Below, piece after piece: positions 57,579-64,000 of a stretch of DNA of 64,000 nt. Location of the stretch: NCBI GenBank assembly GCA_963700635.1, contig CAVOYH010000003.1, positions 256,001-320,000 on the forward strand, read 5' to 3'. This DNA is from an uncultured Bacteroidota bacterium. GTDB taxonomy: Bacteria > Bacteroidota > Ignavibacteria > UBA10030 > UBA6906. Position numbers and translations under genes: made by a program. Below the pieces are notes generated by a model, which was not told the DNA's origin, did no database searches, and was given only the letters and a program-made list of their open reading frames with translations. How positions within the stretch are numbered: position 1 is the first letter of the stretch; every line of letters begins with the position of its first letter.

Positions 57579-58871
57579 TTACTTCATCAGCGTCATCCGC
57601 CTGGTGGCGGTAAGTCCGGCGTGGTCGATCCGGTAGAAATACACGCCGCTGGGAAGCCCCCCGGCGTTCCAGAGAACCTGATGCTGCCCGGCGGGAAGCA
57701 CCTCGTTCACCAGGGTGGCAACCTCTTCGCCGATCGTGTTATAGACCCGCAGCGTCACCTGACCGTCAGCTGGCAGCACAAAGGAGATACGTGTCGACGG
57801 ATTAAACGGATTCGGATAGTTCTGTCCCAGAGAGAACTGCGCGGGCATCGTCACTGGATCATCTTCCCGTACACTTGTCTCATCGGCGTTGTACGCAAAG
57901 ATCGGGCAGGCGGGACGGATCCCATGGTCGCGCAGACCACGCTCGACAAATCGCATCGTCGCAGCAAGCTCCTGCGCGTAGTCCGGTTCGACAAGGGCCA
58001 CTGCGTCAGACAGAAAACCGGCCACCTGATCCGCCGTGACGGTCACATCGAAGCCCGGGATCGGGACATTCGCTTCGATAAGCATCTCCGCCACCGGTGC
58101 TGTCTGTGCGGCCAGAATTGCGATTGTTTGGTTTTCTGGCCGTGAGAAAGCCAACCCGTACTGGGTGATGAGCTTCTTGTATTCCTTTTCTGTCCCGACA
58201 ATCAGAGCGCTCGCATCTGCGACCGGTATTCCGGCAAACGCAGCGAGGTCCTCCGCATAGGCCGCTGCCAGCAGGTGCGGGACCTCGGCCGGACGCGTCT
58301 GCGCCGCAAGCATCATGCGCAGTCCAACACCACGGTCCAGGTTCCTCCGGACCAGCAGATCCACTGCCGTCTCTGAGAGATCGTGTCCCATTTCCGGTGC
58401 GAGGAGACCCGCCACGTAATCTGCGTCCGGCGAGGGAAGACCGCCAGCGTGCAGAATGTCCACAAGGACTGGCATGAGCCGGGGGACGAGCGCCGCCCCT
58501 TTGGCGATGGCATATCCTTCGCCGGGAAACATGAACGAAGCATGATGTGCAGTGAAATCGGCGCCCCAGGTATCATTGTGTGTCAGAAACCCCAAGCCGA
58601 CGGACTTCAGACTCGGTCTCCAGGCCATCCGGTACACCGGCATGAAATTGTGATGTGTCGCGTCATACAGGAACTGTCCGTTCGCATCGAACATAGTGTT
58701 AAACACATCCGGTAGGACCGCTCCATACATTTCGTTCCTATTCAACGGTCCGAATTTCACGCCGAGTTCCCTGGCGAGGTAGACGTGGGTCGCATTCCCC
58801 CAGCTGAATGCACCCTGCACCGCCACGAGAATCAAGAGTGCAGCCACGAACAACTTCTTTGCAGTGTCCAT
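57579..58871 (-). CDS. T9SS C-terminal-domain protein with Zn-dependent phospholipase C/S1-P1-like N-terminal domain
   Basis: Signal peptide ending AFS-W; WGNATH, GAVLPD, GFLTH..ADFTAH, HDLSE; CTD FSLGQNYPNPFNPST...GVYFYRI...MTLMK. Confidence 0.75.
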   Translation of the reverse strand: MDTAKKLFVAALLILVAVQGAFSWGNATHVYLARELGVKFGPLNRNEMYGAVLPDVFNTMFDANGQFLYDATHHNFMPVYRMAWRPSLKSVGLGFLTHNDTWGADFTAHHASFMFPGEGYAIAKGAALVPRLMPVLVDILHAGGLPSPDADYVAGLLAPEMGHDLSETAVDLLVRRNLDRGVGLRMMLAAQTRPAEVPHLLAAAYAEDLAAFAGIPVADASALIVGTEKEYKKLITQYGLAFSRPENQTIAILAAQTAPVAEMLIEANVPIPGFDVTVTADQVAGFLSDAVALVEPDYAQELAATMRFVERGLRDHGIRPACPIFAYNADETSVREDDPVTMPAQFSLGQNYPNPFNPSTRISFVLPADGQVTLRVYNTIGEEVATLVNEVLPAGQHQVLWNAGGLPSGVYFYRIDHAGLTATRRMTLMK

Positions 58872-58937
58872 AAGATCCCTCCTTCGATGGATAGTGGTTG
58901 TTGGACAGCACAAAGATACTCGTGCACAGCGTCCTCA

Positions 58938-58966: not shown

Positions 58967-59134
58967 AATCCTCCTTCGTTGAAATCTCCATCTACGGACC
59001 GCCACTGCAACGCGGAGATCGTGAGCAGGATCGAACGATTCTCCGGGCGATAACCGTGATCACCCCGTGACGCTTTCATGACATCCCTGAGCTCCCCGCA
59101 TCGTACATTTCTTCAGCACCATGCGGGAGGAACG

Positions 59135-60100
59135 ATGCGATTCGCACAGGTATCGACGATCACAGGGGCTATGATTACAACGATGCGCCCCTATCTGCTT
59201 TTTCTCTCAGGCGTCACGGGCCTCGCAGGCATCGCGGCAGCGAAGGACGCTCCGGCCAGCACCGTGCTCCCGGTTTTCCTCGCGGCATTTCTCTCCTACG
59301 GTTTCGGGCAGGCATTGACCGACTGCTTTCAGACAGACACCGATGCGCTGTCAGCTCCCTACCGTCCGCTGGTCCGGGGGATCGTCAGTAAGCGAACCGT
59401 CTTCGTGACCAGCATTCTGGGTCTTGTATCCTGCTGTGCACTGTTTGCCATAAGCAACAGCGTCACACTCGTTCTCGGGACAGTTGCAGTGGGAGGTCTC
59501 GCGACATACACATGGTTCAAACGCCGCTGGTGGGGTGGACCCTGGTACAACGCATGGATCGTGTGCGTCCTGTTTCTGATGGGGTATCTCTCGGGTGAAC
59601 GCCAGGGAACCGCTGCGGTACCGGTCTCCCTGCTCCCTCTCGTGGTCACGGTCTTTTTCGGATATGCAAATTTCGTGCTGGCCGGCTACTTCAAAGACAC
59701 CAACGCAGACAGGCGAACCGGCTACAGGACGTTCCCGGTGGTCTTCGGACGCCGGCGCGCTTCGCGTCTCAGCGATTTCTTTGCCGTTGGAACGGTCGTT
59801 GCTCTCAGCGTTCATCTTGCAGACACATGGAGTACAGATTCGTCATTCTGGTCCGTAGCCCCGTCCGCCCTCTTTGCAGGCTGGGGGCTCGGGCACGCTA
59901 TCATCGGGCAATTCCTGCTTCATCACAATCGGGACGATCAGGATGCCCACAGACCGATCCGCCACGTGGTGCAGAGTTATGTGTTGATGCTGTCTGCTGC
60001 AGCCGTGAGTTTTCATCCCGCGTGGGCGGTGCCGCTCCTGGCATACTACGGTACCTTTCTCCTCGTTCTCACGCACAGAACGGAGCAGAGCCAGATATGA
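59135..60100 (+). CDS. UbiA-family prenyltransferase
   Basis: MRPY; TDCFQTDTDALSAPYRPL; YFKDTNADRRTGYRTFPV; multi-TM; GGGAGG RBS. Confidence 0.85.
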   Translation: MRFAQVSTITGAMITTMRPYLLFLSGVTGLAGIAAAKDAPASTVLPVFLAAFLSYGFGQALTDCFQTDTDALSAPYRPLVRGIVSKRTVFVTSILGLVSCCALFAISNSVTLVLGTVAVGGLATYTWFKRRWWGGPWYNAWIVCVLFLMGYLSGERQGTAAVPVSLLPLVVTVFFGYANFVLAGYFKDTNADRRTGYRTFPVVFGRRRASRLSDFFAVGTVVALSVHLADTWSTDSSFWSVAPSALFAGWGLGHAIIGQFLLHHNRDDQDAHRPIRHVVQSYVLMLSAAAVSFHPAWAVPLLAYYGTFLLVLTHRTEQSQI

Positions 60101-61023
60101 TCGCGTACGTCAATCCGCGGGCTGGCGCGGGGCGGGGCATGGCCCGGTGGAGCAGCATCGAATCCCGCATGAGCAGGACCTACAGAGATCTTCACATTGT
60201 GATGGCGGATGCCCCTGACTCCGCTGAGCGTGCAGTCCGCCGCGCACAGCAGTCACCCGGCCGTCGCATAGTGGCGGTAGGCGGCGATGGCACCGTGAAT
60301 GCCCTGGTAAACGCACTCCTCAACGGAGATCACAACGGAGGCCCCCCGTGTACTCTCGGCGCAATCGGGACCGGTTCGAGCAACGACTTCCACAAGCCGT
60401 TCACGGCGGAAGCAACGATCGGAGCTTTTCCTGCACGCCTGGATTTTGACCGGGCTTCGGCATATGATGCCGGCAGAGTGGAGTGGACCAATGCTGAGGT
60501 ACCAAGCGCACGATACTTCTTTCTGAACGCCAGCGCCGGTATTACTGCGGCCGGCAATGCCCGATTCAATGTCCCGGGACCACTCCTCGGTTTGCTCAAA
60601 CGCGCCCATGTTCCCAGCGCCATTCTCTTTACAGCGCTGACCACGCTTCTCGGATTTCGAAACGTTCATATCAGGCTCACCCTGGGGACGGAACACCTGT
60701 TGGATGTGCCCCTGACGAACCTGGGGATACTGAAGAGCCCCCATTTCTCAGGCGACCTTCGCTACGATACCGCGGGGGATTATGAAAACGGGAAGTTTGT
60801 TGTGGTTGCCTGCACCGGAATGAACACTCTTGAGCGAATCACCCTCTTCCGTGCATTGCGCAGGGGAAGTCTCGCAGGGGTGCAGCATGTCCGCCGCTGG
60901 TCGACATCTGCCGTCACCCTGGAGTCCCCCTGTCCGATCGGCATCGAGTTTGACGGTGAGACCGTTCTGGCGCAGAGTGCCCGGTTCACAGTCGTTCCAC
61001 ATGCACTCCAGGTATGCCCATGA
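60097..61023 (+). CDS. Diacylglycerol/sphingosine kinase family lipid kinase
   Basis: VNPRAGAG; GGDGTVN; GTGSSNDF; FDGE; ATGA overlap with the UbiA stop. Confidence 0.88.
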   Translation: MIAYVNPRAGAGRGMARWSSIESRMSRTYRDLHIVMADAPDSAERAVRRAQQSPGRRIVAVGGDGTVNALVNALLNGDHNGGPPCTLGAIGTGSSNDFHKPFTAEATIGAFPARLDFDRASAYDAGRVEWTNAEVPSARYFFLNASAGITAAGNARFNVPGPLLGLLKRAHVPSAILFTALTTLLGFRNVHIRLTLGTEHLLDVPLTNLGILKSPHFSGDLRYDTAGDYENGKFVVVACTGMNTLERITLFRALRRGSLAGVQHVRRWSTSAVTLESPCPIGIEFDGETVLAQSARFTVVPHALQVCP

Positions 61024-62075
61024 CATCCGCGATACGCGAACTCGCACTCATTACATCGCTCACACGCACGTTCACCAGGTCACCCCGGCAGATGAACCGC
61101 TTGCACGAGAGTGACGCTGAATTGCTGAGGCTCCCGTCGGGCGATCTTCTCGCAATCACGACCGATGCGATCAGTGAAGAACTTTCCAGCGGATTGTACA
61201 GGGATCCATTTCTGGCAGGATGGATGGTGGTGATGGCGAACATGAGCGACCTTGCCGCCGTGGGGGCAGAGCCGCTGGGGATTCTGCTTGCACAGACCCT
61301 CCCCCCTTCATTGTCAGGAACCGAGCTGGAGAGGTTGCAGGAAGGAATCCGGGGTGCATGTTCTGCATGCGGCACGTACGTGCTCGGTGGAGACACCAAT
61401 GAAGGGCCCGCGCTTCATCTGACGGGCACCGGGGTTGGCGTGCTTTCCGGCGACCATCCGCTCTCACGAATCGGATGTCGTGAGCACGACGTCCTGTGCG
61501 CCACGGGGCCGCTGGGGGGTGGAAATGCCTTCGCCGCAAATCAGTTCGCGCGCTCGGAAGTAGCATCCACGGGCTACGCTCCTGCCGCCCGCATCCGACA
61601 GGGCATGGCACTTCGCAGCCTTGCCTCGGCATGTATGGACACCAGTGACGGTCTTTTCGCAACGCTCGATCAGCTCTCGCGCTTGAACGCCGTAGGCTTC
61701 GACCTGGACGACGATTGGGCAGATGGTCTTGATGTGGCGGCCCATGATGCCTGTGCGGATCTGGATATCCCGCTCTGGGCATTTCTTGCAGCTCCCCATG
61801 GGGAATTCGAACTGGTGTTCTCGATATCCCTGGAGCGTCTTCCCGTGTGCAAGGAACTCTTCGGGTCGTACGGATGGCGGCTCCTTCAGCTCGGCCGGGT
61901 ACGAGCCAGCTCCGGTATTCATGTTCCGGGCATCGGGACATTTACCCCTCCCCTGCTTGCGGCTATCAGAAACGCTTCGCCGCTCGGAAGAGGCGGCTTG
62001 ACGGCGTATCTCCAGTTGTTGCAACGCATCGGGAGGCTGGCGGAAAGGTTCGACAGCTTTGTGACATCTCCCTGA
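61020..62075 (+). CDS. ThiL-like (PurM-fold) kinase
   Basis: TTD; NMSDLAAVGAEP; GGDT; MDTSDGL; HGEFEL (vs GEDYEL); ATGA overlap. Confidence 0.8.
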   Translation: MTSAIRELALITSLTRTFTRSPRQMNRLHESDAELLRLPSGDLLAITTDAISEELSSGLYRDPFLAGWMVVMANMSDLAAVGAEPLGILLAQTLPPSLSGTELERLQEGIRGACSACGTYVLGGDTNEGPALHLTGTGVGVLSGDHPLSRIGCREHDVLCATGPLGGGNAFAANQFARSEVASTGYAPAARIRQGMALRSLASACMDTSDGLFATLDQLSRLNAVGFDLDDDWADGLDVAAHDACADLDIPLWAFLAAPHGEFELVFSISLERLPVCKELFGSYGWRLLQLGRVRASSGIHVPGIGTFTPPLLAAIRNASPLGRGGLTAYLQLLQRIGRLAERFDSFVTSP

Positions 62076-62136
62076 CAAACGACGGGACGTCTGACGCTAC
62101 ATTGCAGACAGAGAAACCGAAGGAGGAGAAACAATC

Positions 62137-63456
62137 ATGAAACCTGATGTTGAGTACCGTGGTGGAGAGGACTTCGATCTGAAGAAGATGCTGATGCGCG
62201 GACGACATATGCGACTCGCAGAGCGTACGGCCCTCTTCGCAGAGTTCATGCGTGACCTGGGGACTCACAAAGAAATGCTCTGTCTCCGGTGCATCACATC
62301 GGCTGCCGACCGGACCGTGATGGTCCAGGATCCGGAAACCGGGGCAACTCGTCCCATGCTGATGTTCGGGTCCAACAACTACCTGGGTCTTGCTACCCAT
62401 CCCACTCTCAGGACGCACGCCTGTGAAGCATTGCAGAGTTATGGCGCGGGCGTTGGAGGCCCTCCGCTGCTCAATGGATACACCGCTCTTCATCGTTCAC
62501 TGGAACACCGGCTGGCCGCCTTGAAAGGAACGGACGATGCACTGATCTTTTCCAGCGGCTATGCCGCAAATGTCGGCCTGGTATCGGCCTTGATGAGCCG
62601 GAATGACATGGTATTCTATGACGCATACAGCCACGCATCATTCTCTGACGGCATGCATCTTGCGGGAGTGACGGCCCATCGGTTCGAGCACAATGACCTT
62701 GCTGATCTGCGCAGACTGCTTGCATCGCGGAAGAGATCCACCACCGGCGATACATATGTGGCGGTCGAAGGGGTGTACTCCATGGACGGCGACGTAGCCC
62801 CGCTGAGGGAACTCCTCACACTGTGTACAGCCCACGGGGCAATACTGATCGTCGACGATGCTCATGGAACCGGCGTCCTGGGAGCGCACGGTGGCGGAAC
62901 TGCGGAGCATTGTGGTGTCGAAGGACAGATCCCCATCACGATGGGAACGTTCAGCAAGACCTTTGCGGTCACGGGAGGATTCGTCGCGGCCTCGAAACCG
63001 GTGATCGACTATCTCCGCTTCTTCGCGCGCTCCTATATGTTTTCGGCCTCCCTCTCGCCAGTTTCCATCGCCACCGTACTTGCCGGACTTGACGTACTCC
63101 AGGAAGAGCCGGAGAGGATGTGGGCTCTCCGGCAGAACGTTGCATACGCCGCCGCCGGACTCCGCCGTCTGGGGTTCGACGTCCAGCCGGAGGCTGCCAT
63201 CATTCCCCTTCTGGTACCGCCGGGAATGGACATCCGGCGCGCGGCCCGGTTGTTTCACGAGGATGGAATCTTCGTGAATTCTATAGAATACCCCGCAGTC
63301 CCGGTGGACCAGCAACGATTCCGGATCAGCATCATGGCCACACACACGGGAAACGACATTGACCGGCTCGTGGCCAGCGTCCGTACGGTGTGGGCGGAGT
63401 GCAGGACATCAGGCGAGCAGGGGTGCCATGCGGAACCGCACGCATACGCAGCCTGA
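62137..63456 (+). CDS. PLP-dependent alpha-oxoamine synthase (serine palmitoyltransferase-like)
   Basis: FGSNNYLGL; SHAS; EGVYSMDGD; VDDAHG; GTFSK; ARSYMFSASL; AGGAGG RBS. Confidence 0.85.
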   Translation: MKPDVEYRGGEDFDLKKMLMRGRHMRLAERTALFAEFMRDLGTHKEMLCLRCITSAADRTVMVQDPETGATRPMLMFGSNNYLGLATHPTLRTHACEALQSYGAGVGGPPLLNGYTALHRSLEHRLAALKGTDDALIFSSGYAANVGLVSALMSRNDMVFYDAYSHASFSDGMHLAGVTAHRFEHNDLADLRRLLASRKRSTTGDTYVAVEGVYSMDGDVAPLRELLTLCTAHGAILIVDDAHGTGVLGAHGGGTAEHCGVEGQIPITMGTFSKTFAVTGGFVAASKPVIDYLRFFARSYMFSASLSPVSIATVLAGLDVLQEEPERMWALRQNVAYAAAGLRRLGFDVQPEAAIIPLLVPPGMDIRRAARLFHEDGIFVNSIEYPAVPVDQQRFRISIMATHTGNDIDRLVASVRTVWAECRTSGEQGCHAEPHAYAA

Positions 63457-64000
63457 CCGGAAGAAAATACTCATCATCGTTCTGTTCCAGAACCTGGGCG
63501 ATTCGAACCCGTACTACGCCCGGAGCCCGGCGCCCCCGCTTCCGGGGTTACTTCTGGCCGCCCTGACGCCACCAATTGTCGATGTGGAAGTGCTTCACGA
63601 AATGGTGCGGCCGATCAACTATGAAACGGACGCCGGGTTTGTTGCGCTGAGTTTCATGGACTATCTCTCTCCGCATGCATACGACGTAGCAGCCCGTTTT
63701 CGGAAAGCCGGTAAAACCGTCATCGGAGGAGGAAAATTCGCCTCTACCTTTCCCGACGAAGTCCAGCCGCATTTTGACAGTATTCTCGTCGGTGAGGCAC
63801 AGGACATGTGGCCCATGATGGTGAGGGACCTGGTGGACGGCGCACTGAAGCCCCGGTATGAAGCATCGCTGAACGGGTCGCTGGCGGGTATGCCCTCACC
63901 CCGGTATGACCTTGCCGAAAGCACATACGTCACGCCGGTCGTCACGGAAGCGACACGCGGATGCCCGCATCCATGCACATACTGTCAGCTGAATATCCGG
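63428..64000 (+). CDS. B12-binding radical SAM protein, truncated at window end
   Basis: Absent from the ORF track. Manual translation: MRNRTH...LAALTP...VIGGG...GEA...EATRGCPHPCTYC (CxxxCxxC); overlaps the SPT-like stop. Confidence 0.88.
   Translation, partial: MRNRTHTQPDRKKILIIVLFQNLGDSNPYYARSPAPPLPGLLLAALTPPIVDVEVLHEMVRPINYETDAGFVALSFMDYLSPHAYDVAARFRKAGKTVIGGGKFASTFPDEVQPHFDSILVGEAQDMWPMMVRDLVDGALKPRYEASLNGSLAGMPSPRYDLAESTYVTPVVTEATRGCPHPCTYCQLNIR

Follow-up and report, generated by a model that had tools for sequence, protein, structure and literature searches.

A conserved operon from an uncultured Bacteroidota bacterium that may build or remodel a specialised envelope lipid

What might a UbiA-type membrane transferase, two kinases, a serine palmitoyltransferase (SPT)-like enzyme and a radical SAM (S-adenosylmethionine) enzyme do together? 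The question is raised by five head-to-tail genes on the + strand at the 3' end of a 64,000-nucleotide stretch of an uncultured Bacteroidota bacterium of the Ignavibacteria (contig CAVOYH010000003.1, positions 256,001 to 320,000; G000:C3:256001-320000), hereafter the window, in a genome of 4.2 Mb in 6 contigs that is 97% complete with 6.7% contamination. In order, the genes encode a UbiA-type transferase, a diacylglycerol kinase (DAGK)/YegS-type kinase, a ThiL-like kinase, an alpha-oxoamine synthase (AOS) and the radical SAM enzyme; UbiA, the DAGK-type kinase and the ThiL-like gene are referred to below as the triad. The five genes form one real, conserved operon, and none encodes the housekeeping enzyme suggested by its name. 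By analogy with characterised relatives, we tentatively read the operon, at somewhat less than an even chance, as a gene module for the synthesis or remodelling of a specialised sphingoid-type or amino-lipid-type lipid of the envelope, in which an alcohol would become a phosphate and then a diphosphate for transfer by UbiA. Its features are as follows.

59135..60100, + strand: UbiA-superfamily membrane transferase, 321 amino acids (aa); a longer frame opens at 59078
60097..61023, + strand: soluble DAGK_cat/YegS-type lipid kinase, 308 aa
61020..62075, + strand: ThiL-like PurM-superfamily kinase, 351 aa from the ATGA start or 353 aa from an alternative ATG at 61014
62076..62136, + strand: intergenic spacer of 61 bp, with a GGAGGAG ribosome-binding site directly before the AOS ATG at 62137
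62137..63456, + strand: SPT-like AOS, 439 aa, the third AOS paralogue of the genome
63428..64000, + strand: 5' part of the class-B radical SAM enzyme; the whole gene, of 464 aa, runs to window-equivalent position 64822 (L002 7822)

The first-pass annotation of this DNA had described five co-oriented genes with ATGA overlaps, a 61-bp gap and a 29-bp overlap, and the sequence bears out each of these junctions. The ATGA at 60097-60100 combines the UbiA stop with the kinase start, that at 61020-61023 combines the kinase stop with the ThiL-like start, and the AOS stop at 63456 lies 29 bp into the radical SAM frame, whose ATG is at 63428. The UbiA start at 59135 has GGGAGGAACG ahead of it and fits the lengths of orthologues. 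The same annotation had the operon continuing past the window, which holds for the radical SAM gene itself and for nothing further: this gene, ending just beyond the window, is the operon's last, and the downstream genes are convergent, with no further co-oriented gene among them. Scans for regulatory elements returned no Rfam family, and in particular no thiamine pyrophosphate (TPP) riboswitch, in L002 1-12000 at E up to 0.1, and 0 sigma-70-type promoter sites; terminator-like sites (9 against 4.5 +/- 1.9 expected) were uninformative. No RNA run containing the locus was found.

Whether these five genes belong together was addressed with a profile of the ThiL-like protein, which found 229 relatives in contigs representing one genome per species; the best 80 of the 229 loci were fetched, and gene content around the ThiL-like gene was established by tblastn with the window's proteins. 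Within the limits set by contig ends, all 80 of these loci from other genomes repeat the arrangement, which is therefore far beyond chance. In all 68 loci whose contigs extend 2.2 kb or more upstream, the ThiL-like gene is immediately preceded by UbiA and the kinase. Among the 48 loci with room on both sides, the AOS is nearby in 42 (40 of them at 50% identity or more to the window AOS), the radical SAM gene in 46, a short-chain dehydrogenase (SDR) in 16 and f15, an unannotated small membrane protein, in 6. AOS and f15 are mutually exclusive: all six AOS-less loci of the 48 carry f15, which occurs in 13 of the 80 loci overall, only in AOS-less ones. The invariant core is the translationally coupled triad, with the SPT-like AOS and the class-B radical SAM enzyme as its usual accessories. 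Co-occurrence elsewhere, on which the first-pass annotation had staked its proposal, is confirmed, and its five-gene set is indeed conserved, although the AOS and radical SAM genes are frequent accessories rather than obligatory members of it.

By record title, the 80 loci comprise 38 of Ignavibacteria type, 19 labelled "Bacteroidota bacterium" or "Bacteroidetes bacterium", 8 Gemmatimonadota, 3 Calditrichota, 3 Aminicenantes, 3 "Eubacteriales", and one each labelled Chlorobiaceae, Verrucomicrobiota, Zixiibacteriota and Peribacteria, together with two unclassified. All but one are labelled metagenome-assembled genomes (MAGs; 79 of 80, the exception being L058, "Bacterium BMS3Abin03"), and some labels may reflect binning errors. 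No isolate name appears in the 80 record titles or among the names given for the top 120 matches of the ThiL-like and UbiA searches, so that the cluster could be linked to no published lipid composition. When 151 genomes of the window's phylum were sampled without bias, three proved to have the ThiL-like orthologue, the same three and no others had the UbiA orthologue, adjoining the ThiL-like gene, and two of them had the radical SAM orthologue; in the phylum of a carrier labelled Gemmatimonadota, the ThiL-like orthologue was present in 2 of 151 genomes. The cluster is therefore rare within phyla but coherent, and spread over several of them.

All five family assignments hold in Pfam and NCBIfam searches, yet each protein scores below every NCBIfam equivalog cut-off; catalytic motifs are kept in all five families in alignments of orthologues. 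The ThiL-like protein belongs to the PurM/AIRS superfamily (AIRS, PF00586, 74.2 bits against a cut-off of 24), and its best match in the Protein Data Bank (PDB) is ThiL 5cc8 (E 2.5e-25), but on the thiL model TIGR01379 it reaches 148 bits, below the cut-off of 184, and so falls outside ThiL proper. Residues D34, D51, D79, D127, D209 and D212 are invariant in 20 sequences and, by analogy, would be metal or ATP ligands. ThiL itself converts a monophosphate to a diphosphate by in-line attack on the gamma-phosphate of ATP, with the outer portion of the bound substrate facing the solvent (PMC6416309). The common fold and invariant acidic residues make the same monophosphate-to-diphosphate chemistry likely for the cluster protein, which differs from ThiL in its score below the cut-off, in a host without ThiE and in always being wedged between the lipid kinase and lipid genes.

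Within the window genome, no gene matches the thiL model better than the cluster gene, the next matches being HypE-like or PurM-like. In this 97% complete genome ThiE was not found, whereas thiamine pyrophosphokinase (TPK) is present (131 bits; cut-off 76), which suggests that the organism obtains its thiamine cofactor by salvage and has no need of ThiL. In two of five other carrier genomes, moreover, a true ThiL (304 and 230 bits) exists alongside the cluster copy (159 and 167 bits). A housekeeping ThiL is ruled out by the score, the missing ThiE, the presence of TPK, the coexisting true ThiL and the lack of a TPP riboswitch, and the possibility raised at first pass, that this is simply the sole housekeeping copy, can be set aside: the protein is a paralogue of thiamine-phosphate kinase. 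It belongs to a large group, with 1051 relatives at E up to 0.001 in a large protein collection (8000 candidates scored), which where named at all bear the generic name "thiamine-monophosphate kinase".

As a separate observation, the second-best thiL-model match in the genome (G000:C3:482420-483661) ends at its C-terminus in ...PRIC, an ending that we take to be that of HypE, a hydrogenase maturation protein; the product is most likely HypE, which would imply a [NiFe]-hydrogenase in this organism.

The pyridoxal phosphate (PLP) enzyme is likewise distinct from the characterised members of its family. It is an aminotransferase-fold protein by Pfam (Aminotran_1_2, 189.4 bits) that stays below the cut-offs of the bioF model (374 bits against 426), the Bacteroidota-type SPT model NF047600 (SPT-CFB; 360 against 640), the Kbl model (329 against 460) and the autoinducer-synthase model NF005526 for CqsA/LqsA (212.9 against 428), and its best solved relative is serine palmitoyltransferase (3a2b/8guh, 282 bits; next entry 242). 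Three AOS paralogues are encoded in the genome, namely the cluster AOS, Kbl and an SPT-like protein, the cluster enzyme being 37% identical to the SPT-like paralogue and 32% to Kbl. The genome's Kbl is a separate gene on contig C1 (516 bits, above its cut-off of 460), and BioB was not found in the window genome (best match 41 bits against a cut-off of 225), so no BioF is needed. Identity as BioF or Kbl, which had been named at first pass as the outcome that would undo the proposal, is ruled out on these grounds. The organism looks auxotrophic for both thiamine and biotin.

The SPT-like paralogue (G000:C2:127381-128751; L009 1288-2616, + strand) scores 476 bits on the SPT model, again below the cut-off of 640, and is divergent from a gene for an HpnA-like reductase of the NAD-dependent epimerase family (L009 242-1273, - strand). 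The organism thus probably already makes ordinary sphingoid bases, with the cluster AOS as an extra paralogue. The backbone of the AOS tree is unresolved, and three of its rows (L094, L096 and L097), translated from the wrong strand, form very long branches; only two of its groupings are used here: L092, L093 and L095 cluster with the genome's SPT-like paralogue (support 98/98), and L075 pairs with L084 (96/99). AOS-less carriers have an SPT-like gene elsewhere in five of five cases (521-554 bits on NF047600), a test that is non-discriminating because such genes are common in the window-phylum sample (86 of 151 genomes at E up to 1e-130; 84 of 149 without G216 and G256).

The transferase is a member of the UbiA prenyltransferase superfamily (PF01040, 98.3 bits against a cut-off of 34.2, residues 46-275). 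Its hydropathy profile has two segments at the strict threshold, in a scan too crude for counting transmembrane helices. The best NCBIfam matches are models of archaeal digeranylgeranylglyceryl phosphate (DGGGP) synthase, at 62-67 bits against cut-offs of 269-353, and the best PDB match of the family profile is the DGGGP synthase 6m31 (48.6 bits). Both Asp-rich motifs align with this closest relative, TDCFQxDTD with NDIFDIEID and YFKDxxAD with DFEDMEGD, although the cluster motifs read TDxxQxDxD rather than NDxxDxxxD and YxxDxxxD rather than DxxDxxxD; they also align with chlorophyll synthase, and two of three acidic residues are retained per motif. T62, D63, Q66, D68, D70, K187, D188 and D192 are invariant in 30 orthologues. 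Membership among the DGGGP synthases is not indicated, given scores far below cut-off and PcrB/GGGPS (geranylgeranylglyceryl phosphate synthase) above cut-off in only one of five carrier genomes; in the window genome PcrB/GGGPS reaches 22.2 bits against a cut-off of 23.9. Relatives of this UbiA are numerous (at E up to 1e-30, 2561 clusters among 8000 candidates scored in the large protein collection), and their names, where given, are the generic "4-hydroxybenzoate polyprenyltransferase" and "GGGP geranylgeranyltransferase".

The kinase between them falls within the DAGK_cat family (PF00781, 65.4 bits against 23.6), with YegS_C at 27.3 against 27, but below the cut-off of the subfamily model TIGR00147 (63 against 118.65). 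The GGDG of its VGGDGT motif is invariant in 25 orthologues (G62, G63, D64 and G65 in alignment A4), similarity to solved lipid kinases is remote (4wer, E 4e-4), and a hydropathy scan found no hydrophobic segment. A bacterial ceramide kinase, CpgB, is also soluble and has the same kinase domain, according to the cited part of the report describing it (PMC10331486).

Of the cluster's proteins, the radical SAM enzyme shows the strongest conservation, at 57-74% identity across phyla. The window copy matches Radical_SAM at 52.6 bits and the B12-binding domain weakly, at 20 bits; among 29 orthologues, Radical_SAM was detected in all 29, B12-binding in 16 (best E 1.8e-8) and DUF4070 in 17, so that by domain content the class-B label (B12-binding, radical SAM and DUF4070) is assignable at the level of the family. 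The CxxxCxxC motif is invariant (C179, C183 and C186 in alignment A2). Against the solved enzymes CysS, TsrM, AprD4 and TokK, the family profile gave weak matches to the core only. The protein has a C-terminal hydrophobic segment, consistent with a membrane-bound substrate.

The surroundings of the triad in other genomes are dominated by lipid, membrane and envelope functions. In Gemmatimonadota-labelled loci, radical SAM and SDR genes stand upstream on the opposite strand, followed by f15 and the triad. In L059 (Eubacteriales label) and L085 (Aminicenantes label), the order is sensor kinase, regulator, kinase, UbiA, ThiL-like gene, SDR, f15, SDR and radical SAM gene, which in L085 is followed by genes for an Omp85-like protein, a protein with 5-6 transmembrane (TM) segments and a COQ7-like protein. 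L075 has a different SPT-like AOS upstream of UbiA (38-41% identical, 422 bits on the SPT model), with an acyl-AMP ligase and an SDR ahead of the radical SAM gene, and the same upstream AOS is found in L084. In G118, from the same order as the window organism, UbiA, the kinase, the ThiL-like gene and the AOS are followed by genes for a MacB-type permease, an ABC ATPase, a DUF3419 protein and a GNAT protein, and L035 has the same tail without the AOS. A lipid role is supported by these accessory genes of the relatives: SDR, acyl-AMP ligase, GNAT, DUF3419, MacB-type exporter, Omp85-like and polytopic membrane proteins.

Two further observations concern these accessories. In G118 (L099 12536-16450) and in L035 (11032-14941), the MacB-type permease, ABC ATPase, DUF3419 and GNAT genes replace the radical SAM gene, which points to a second accessory set for head-group chemistry and export; DUF3419 is a domain annotated in the betaine-lipid synthase BTA1, according to the cited portion of one report (PMC10685587). 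Three families of small polytopic membrane proteins without a Pfam match recur beside the cluster, namely f15 (for example L085 11980-12405), with 3-4 TM segments and conserved FExAFPxAD and LDVxF motifs, f98 (L085 16118-16873) and f104 (L071 6943-7617).

From these parts a pathway can be sketched. Condensation of an acyl thioester and an amino acid by the AOS would yield a sphingoid base or long-chain amino-ketone; the DAGK-type kinase would phosphorylate a lipid with a primary alcohol, whether this base or an isoprenoid; the ThiL-like enzyme would add a second phosphate, as ThiL does on thiamine phosphate, to give a lipid diphosphate; UbiA would use this diphosphate as alkyl donor, releasing pyrophosphate and joining the chain to an acceptor; and the membrane-associated radical SAM enzyme would methylate or otherwise tailor a hydrocarbon chain. 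The sequence from alcohol through phosphate and diphosphate to transfer is the simplest closed scheme, because ThiL makes and UbiA enzymes use diphosphates, and DAGK-family enzymes make lipid monophosphates. Its tightest inference comes from the ThiL-like and UbiA genes, a presumed diphosphate-maker and a presumed diphosphate-user, always being in the same triad. As to the alcohol, an AOS-derived base is favoured by the AOS being linked in 42 of 48 loci and by the recruitment of two AOS types, and an isoprenoid by the allylic nature of UbiA donors. To our knowledge, these donors are allylic prenyl diphosphates or phosphoribosyl pyrophosphate (PRPP). A precedent for a UbiA-fold enzyme that combines a non-prenyl diphosphate donor, PRPP, with a lipid phosphate acceptor is the mycobacterial decaprenyl-phosphate phosphoribosyltransferase; by its example one kinase product could be acceptor and another donor, although this enzyme is absent from the PDB and NCBIfam matches of UbiA and the cluster holds no sugar-phosphate genes. 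A more specific form of the proposal, in which the ThiL paralogue acts as a lipid-phosphate kinase, a sphingoid base or ceramide diphosphate (possibly allylic) serves UbiA as alkyl donor, and new ether- or N-alkyl-linked sphingolipid-like envelope lipids result, under sensor control, in bacteria labelled Ignavibacteria, Gemmatimonadota, Aminicenantes and relatives, strikes us as improbable. Nothing in the analysis supports the dimeric product that had also been suggested at first pass.

The nearest described counterpart is the Caulobacter ceramide/phosphosphingolipid pathway (Spt, ACP/ACS, bCerS, CerR and CpgB), which likewise combines an SPT-like PLP enzyme with a soluble kinase of the DAGK/LCB5 domain bearing GGDG; relatives of the cluster carry SDR, acyl-AMP ligase and GNAT genes, and both systems belong to outer-membrane biology, as far as the cited excerpts of the Caulobacter reports describe theirs (PMC10331486, PMC11324152, PMC9386255). 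The window differs in having no bCerS, CerR or ACP, its AOS lies below the SPT equivalog cut-off with a better SPT-like paralogue elsewhere in the genome, and nothing in that pathway corresponds to the cluster's UbiA, ThiL-like kinase or class-B radical SAM enzyme. In agreement with the first-pass statement that no such pathway had been described, targeted full-text searches, with subscription-only literature and supplementary files outside their scope, gave no match for the gene combination.

Several points weigh against this scheme. A saturated sphingoid or alkyl diphosphate as UbiA donor would be unprecedented chemistry, and no gene of the cluster is an evident source of free prenol. In the first UbiA motif, the second Asp is replaced by an invariant Gln and the Asn by an invariant Thr, so that metal-diphosphate binding may deviate from that of canonical enzymes; the replacements may point to an unusual donor or to an unusual metal geometry. 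Six of 48 loci have the triad but no AOS nearby, and in G118, L035 and L084 a nearby radical SAM gene is missing. With all five proteins below equivalog cut-offs, substrates are assigned by family-level analogy. A search for fused kinase-kinase or kinase-UbiA proteins of more than 618 aa found none at E up to 1e-40, which is weak evidence. Finally, a type-2 isopentenyl diphosphate (IPP) isomerase (393 bits against 281) and an IdsA/GGPPS-like prenyl diphosphate synthase adjoin UbiA, in divergent orientation, in three related loci:

L031 5734-7772, - strand: IPP isomerase and prenyl diphosphate synthase
L058 5627-7665, - strand: IPP isomerase and prenyl diphosphate synthase
L081 5002-7037, - strand: IPP isomerase and prenyl diphosphate synthase

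These neighbours (3 of 80 loci) hint at an ordinary prenyl diphosphate as donor and at another role for the kinases. Such a role is the substance of the strongest alternative, which we consider possible but doubtful: the same lipid pathway would run in another order, with the DAGK-type kinase making a phosphorylated acceptor (for example a sphingoid base 1-phosphate, a structural analogue of GGGP or lyso-phosphatidate) that a DGGGP synthase-like UbiA would O- or N-prenylate with an ordinary prenyl diphosphate, after which the ThiL-like kinase would make a head-group diphosphate, to serve as the terminal anionic head group or as an activated intermediate. This order calls for no unprecedented donor, since every bacterium contains prenyl diphosphate, and the best relatives of UbiA in NCBIfam and the PDB, the DGGGP synthases, prenylate a lipid phosphate. 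The ceramide-1-phosphate of Caulobacter has, in addition, been proposed to need an extra activation step (PMC11324152). The reordered pathway gives, on the other hand, no clear reason why a kinase that turns monophosphates into diphosphates should be inseparable from a transferase that consumes diphosphates, and the match of UbiA to the DGGGP synthase models, as noted, is far below cut-off. A bacterial lipid whose diphosphate head group arises by such a ThiL-like step is not known to us. With GGGPS/PcrB above cut-off in one of five triad genomes, the cluster is also not the archaeal route itself; that classical lipid route (GGGPS followed by DGGGP synthase) is disfavoured on the same count.

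A different kind of alternative arises from the genes that follow the operon. Convergent with it on the - strand are genes for a response regulator of the OmpR type and for a histidine kinase of 861 aa that combines PDZ, GAF, HisKA and HATPase domains with about 10 hydrophobic segments, a pair that the first-pass annotation, which had asked for the downstream genes to be read, had missed. An orthologous sensor kinase (at least 357 bits, 29-53% identity over most of its length) stands beside the cluster in 31 of the 80 loci, and in these same 31, Aminicenantes-labelled ones included, the regulator (48-76% identity) is next to it; two further loci have partial sensor kinase matches. The sensor kinase also shows similarity to the envelope kinase of PrsK type over the TM and GAF portion, below the cut-off (122.6 bits). 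The pair probably controls the operon. In G118, a separate 933-aa protein with PDZ and GAF domains (L099 3374-6175; G118:C2, + strand) carries a SpoIIE/PP2C phosphatase output instead of a kinase and is similar to a cluster-linked sensor kinase over 428 residues; judged from its domains, it looks like an output-domain swap, with the sensor module tied to the cluster whatever the output.

In the alpha-hydroxyketone quorum-sensing systems CqsA/CqsS and LqsA/LqsS/LqsR, an AOS gene is likewise accompanied by genes for a response regulator and a histidine kinase with multiple TM segments, and the cluster might by the same logic make a hydrophobic signal or secondary metabolite, such as a prenylated amino-ketone, that is sensed by the adjacent kinase and regulator. 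The conservation of this pair in 31 of 80 loci fits such a role, as does the patchy distribution of the cluster (3 of 151 and 2 of 151 genomes), which suits an accessory trait. We nonetheless hold this to be unlikely: on NF005526 the AOS reaches 213 bits (cut-off 428), less than with either the SPT or the BioF model; the sensor pair is also found with the AOS-less clusters L059, L067 and L085; the sensor kinase resembles the PrsK type, below the cut-off; and the exporter, Omp85-like and membrane-protein neighbours better match a bulk envelope lipid. The CqsA and Lqs systems also lack the UbiA, kinases and radical SAM enzyme of the cluster.

It is somewhat less probable still that the triad is a prenol salvage unit for an ordinary isoprenoid (a quinone or pigment), with the AOS and radical SAM genes as unrelated neighbours. 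The three-step logic of the proposed scheme is identical to that of plant and cyanobacterial phytol salvage, in which VTE5 and VTE6 supply UbiA-family transferases (HPT or chlorophyll synthase), and polyprenol and polyprenyl-phosphate kinase activity has been reported in bacteria, both according to the relevant portion of one review (PMC9782597). The kinases of the cluster, however, are of unrelated folds (DAGK_cat and PurM/ThiL) and are coupled to the SPT-like enzyme and radical SAM enzyme, at the 61-bp and 29-bp junctions in the window and by proximity to the triad in 42 and 46 of 48 loci, respectively. Two different AOS types have been recruited, and the neighbourhoods examined contain no aromatic-acceptor pathway genes. 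Fortuitous adjacency of a housekeeping ThiL, a BioF or Kbl, a quinone-pathway UbiA/MenA and an unrelated radical SAM enzyme, which the automatic names "thiamine-monophosphate kinase" and "4-hydroxybenzoate polyprenyltransferase" on relatives might suggest, is already refuted by the missing ThiE with TPK present, the true ThiL and Kbl elsewhere, the missing BioB, the lack of a TPP riboswitch and the gene order kept in 68 of 68 loci.

The genes upstream of the operon are unrelated to it: they encode a protein with a type IX secretion system (T9SS) tail on the other strand, an outer-membrane beta-barrel protein, an aldo-keto reductase, a TPR protein and a GT4 glycosyltransferase. Proteins with a T9SS C-terminal sorting domain flank the region on both sides (window 57579-58913, - strand, and L002 13700-15013); they fit a host of the Bacteroidota/FCB group and appear to have no relation to the operon.

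We rate the locus as a bacterial lipid-biosynthesis operon with an unprecedented combination of enzymes, that is, as a known kind of system in a new combination. If the envelope-lipid interpretation is correct, it would represent an unrecognised branch of bacterial sphingolipid or amino-lipid biosynthesis in uncultured lineages known here as MAGs, whose membrane lipids are largely unknown. It would also provide the first bacterial genes for the activation of a lipid alcohol to phosphate and diphosphate; in the passages of the review cited here, genes for polyprenol and polyprenyl-phosphate kinases are known only from plants and cyanobacteria (PMC9782597). A large family automatically annotated as "thiamine-monophosphate kinase" would gain a non-thiamine function. 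Should the diphosphate be non-isoprenoid, the pathway would constitute a third mode of lipid activation, next to CDP-activation and the de novo synthesis of prenyl diphosphates, and would give the PurM superfamily a new function. The conserved sensor kinase, in turn, would offer a handle on how the carrier bacteria sense and remodel their envelopes.

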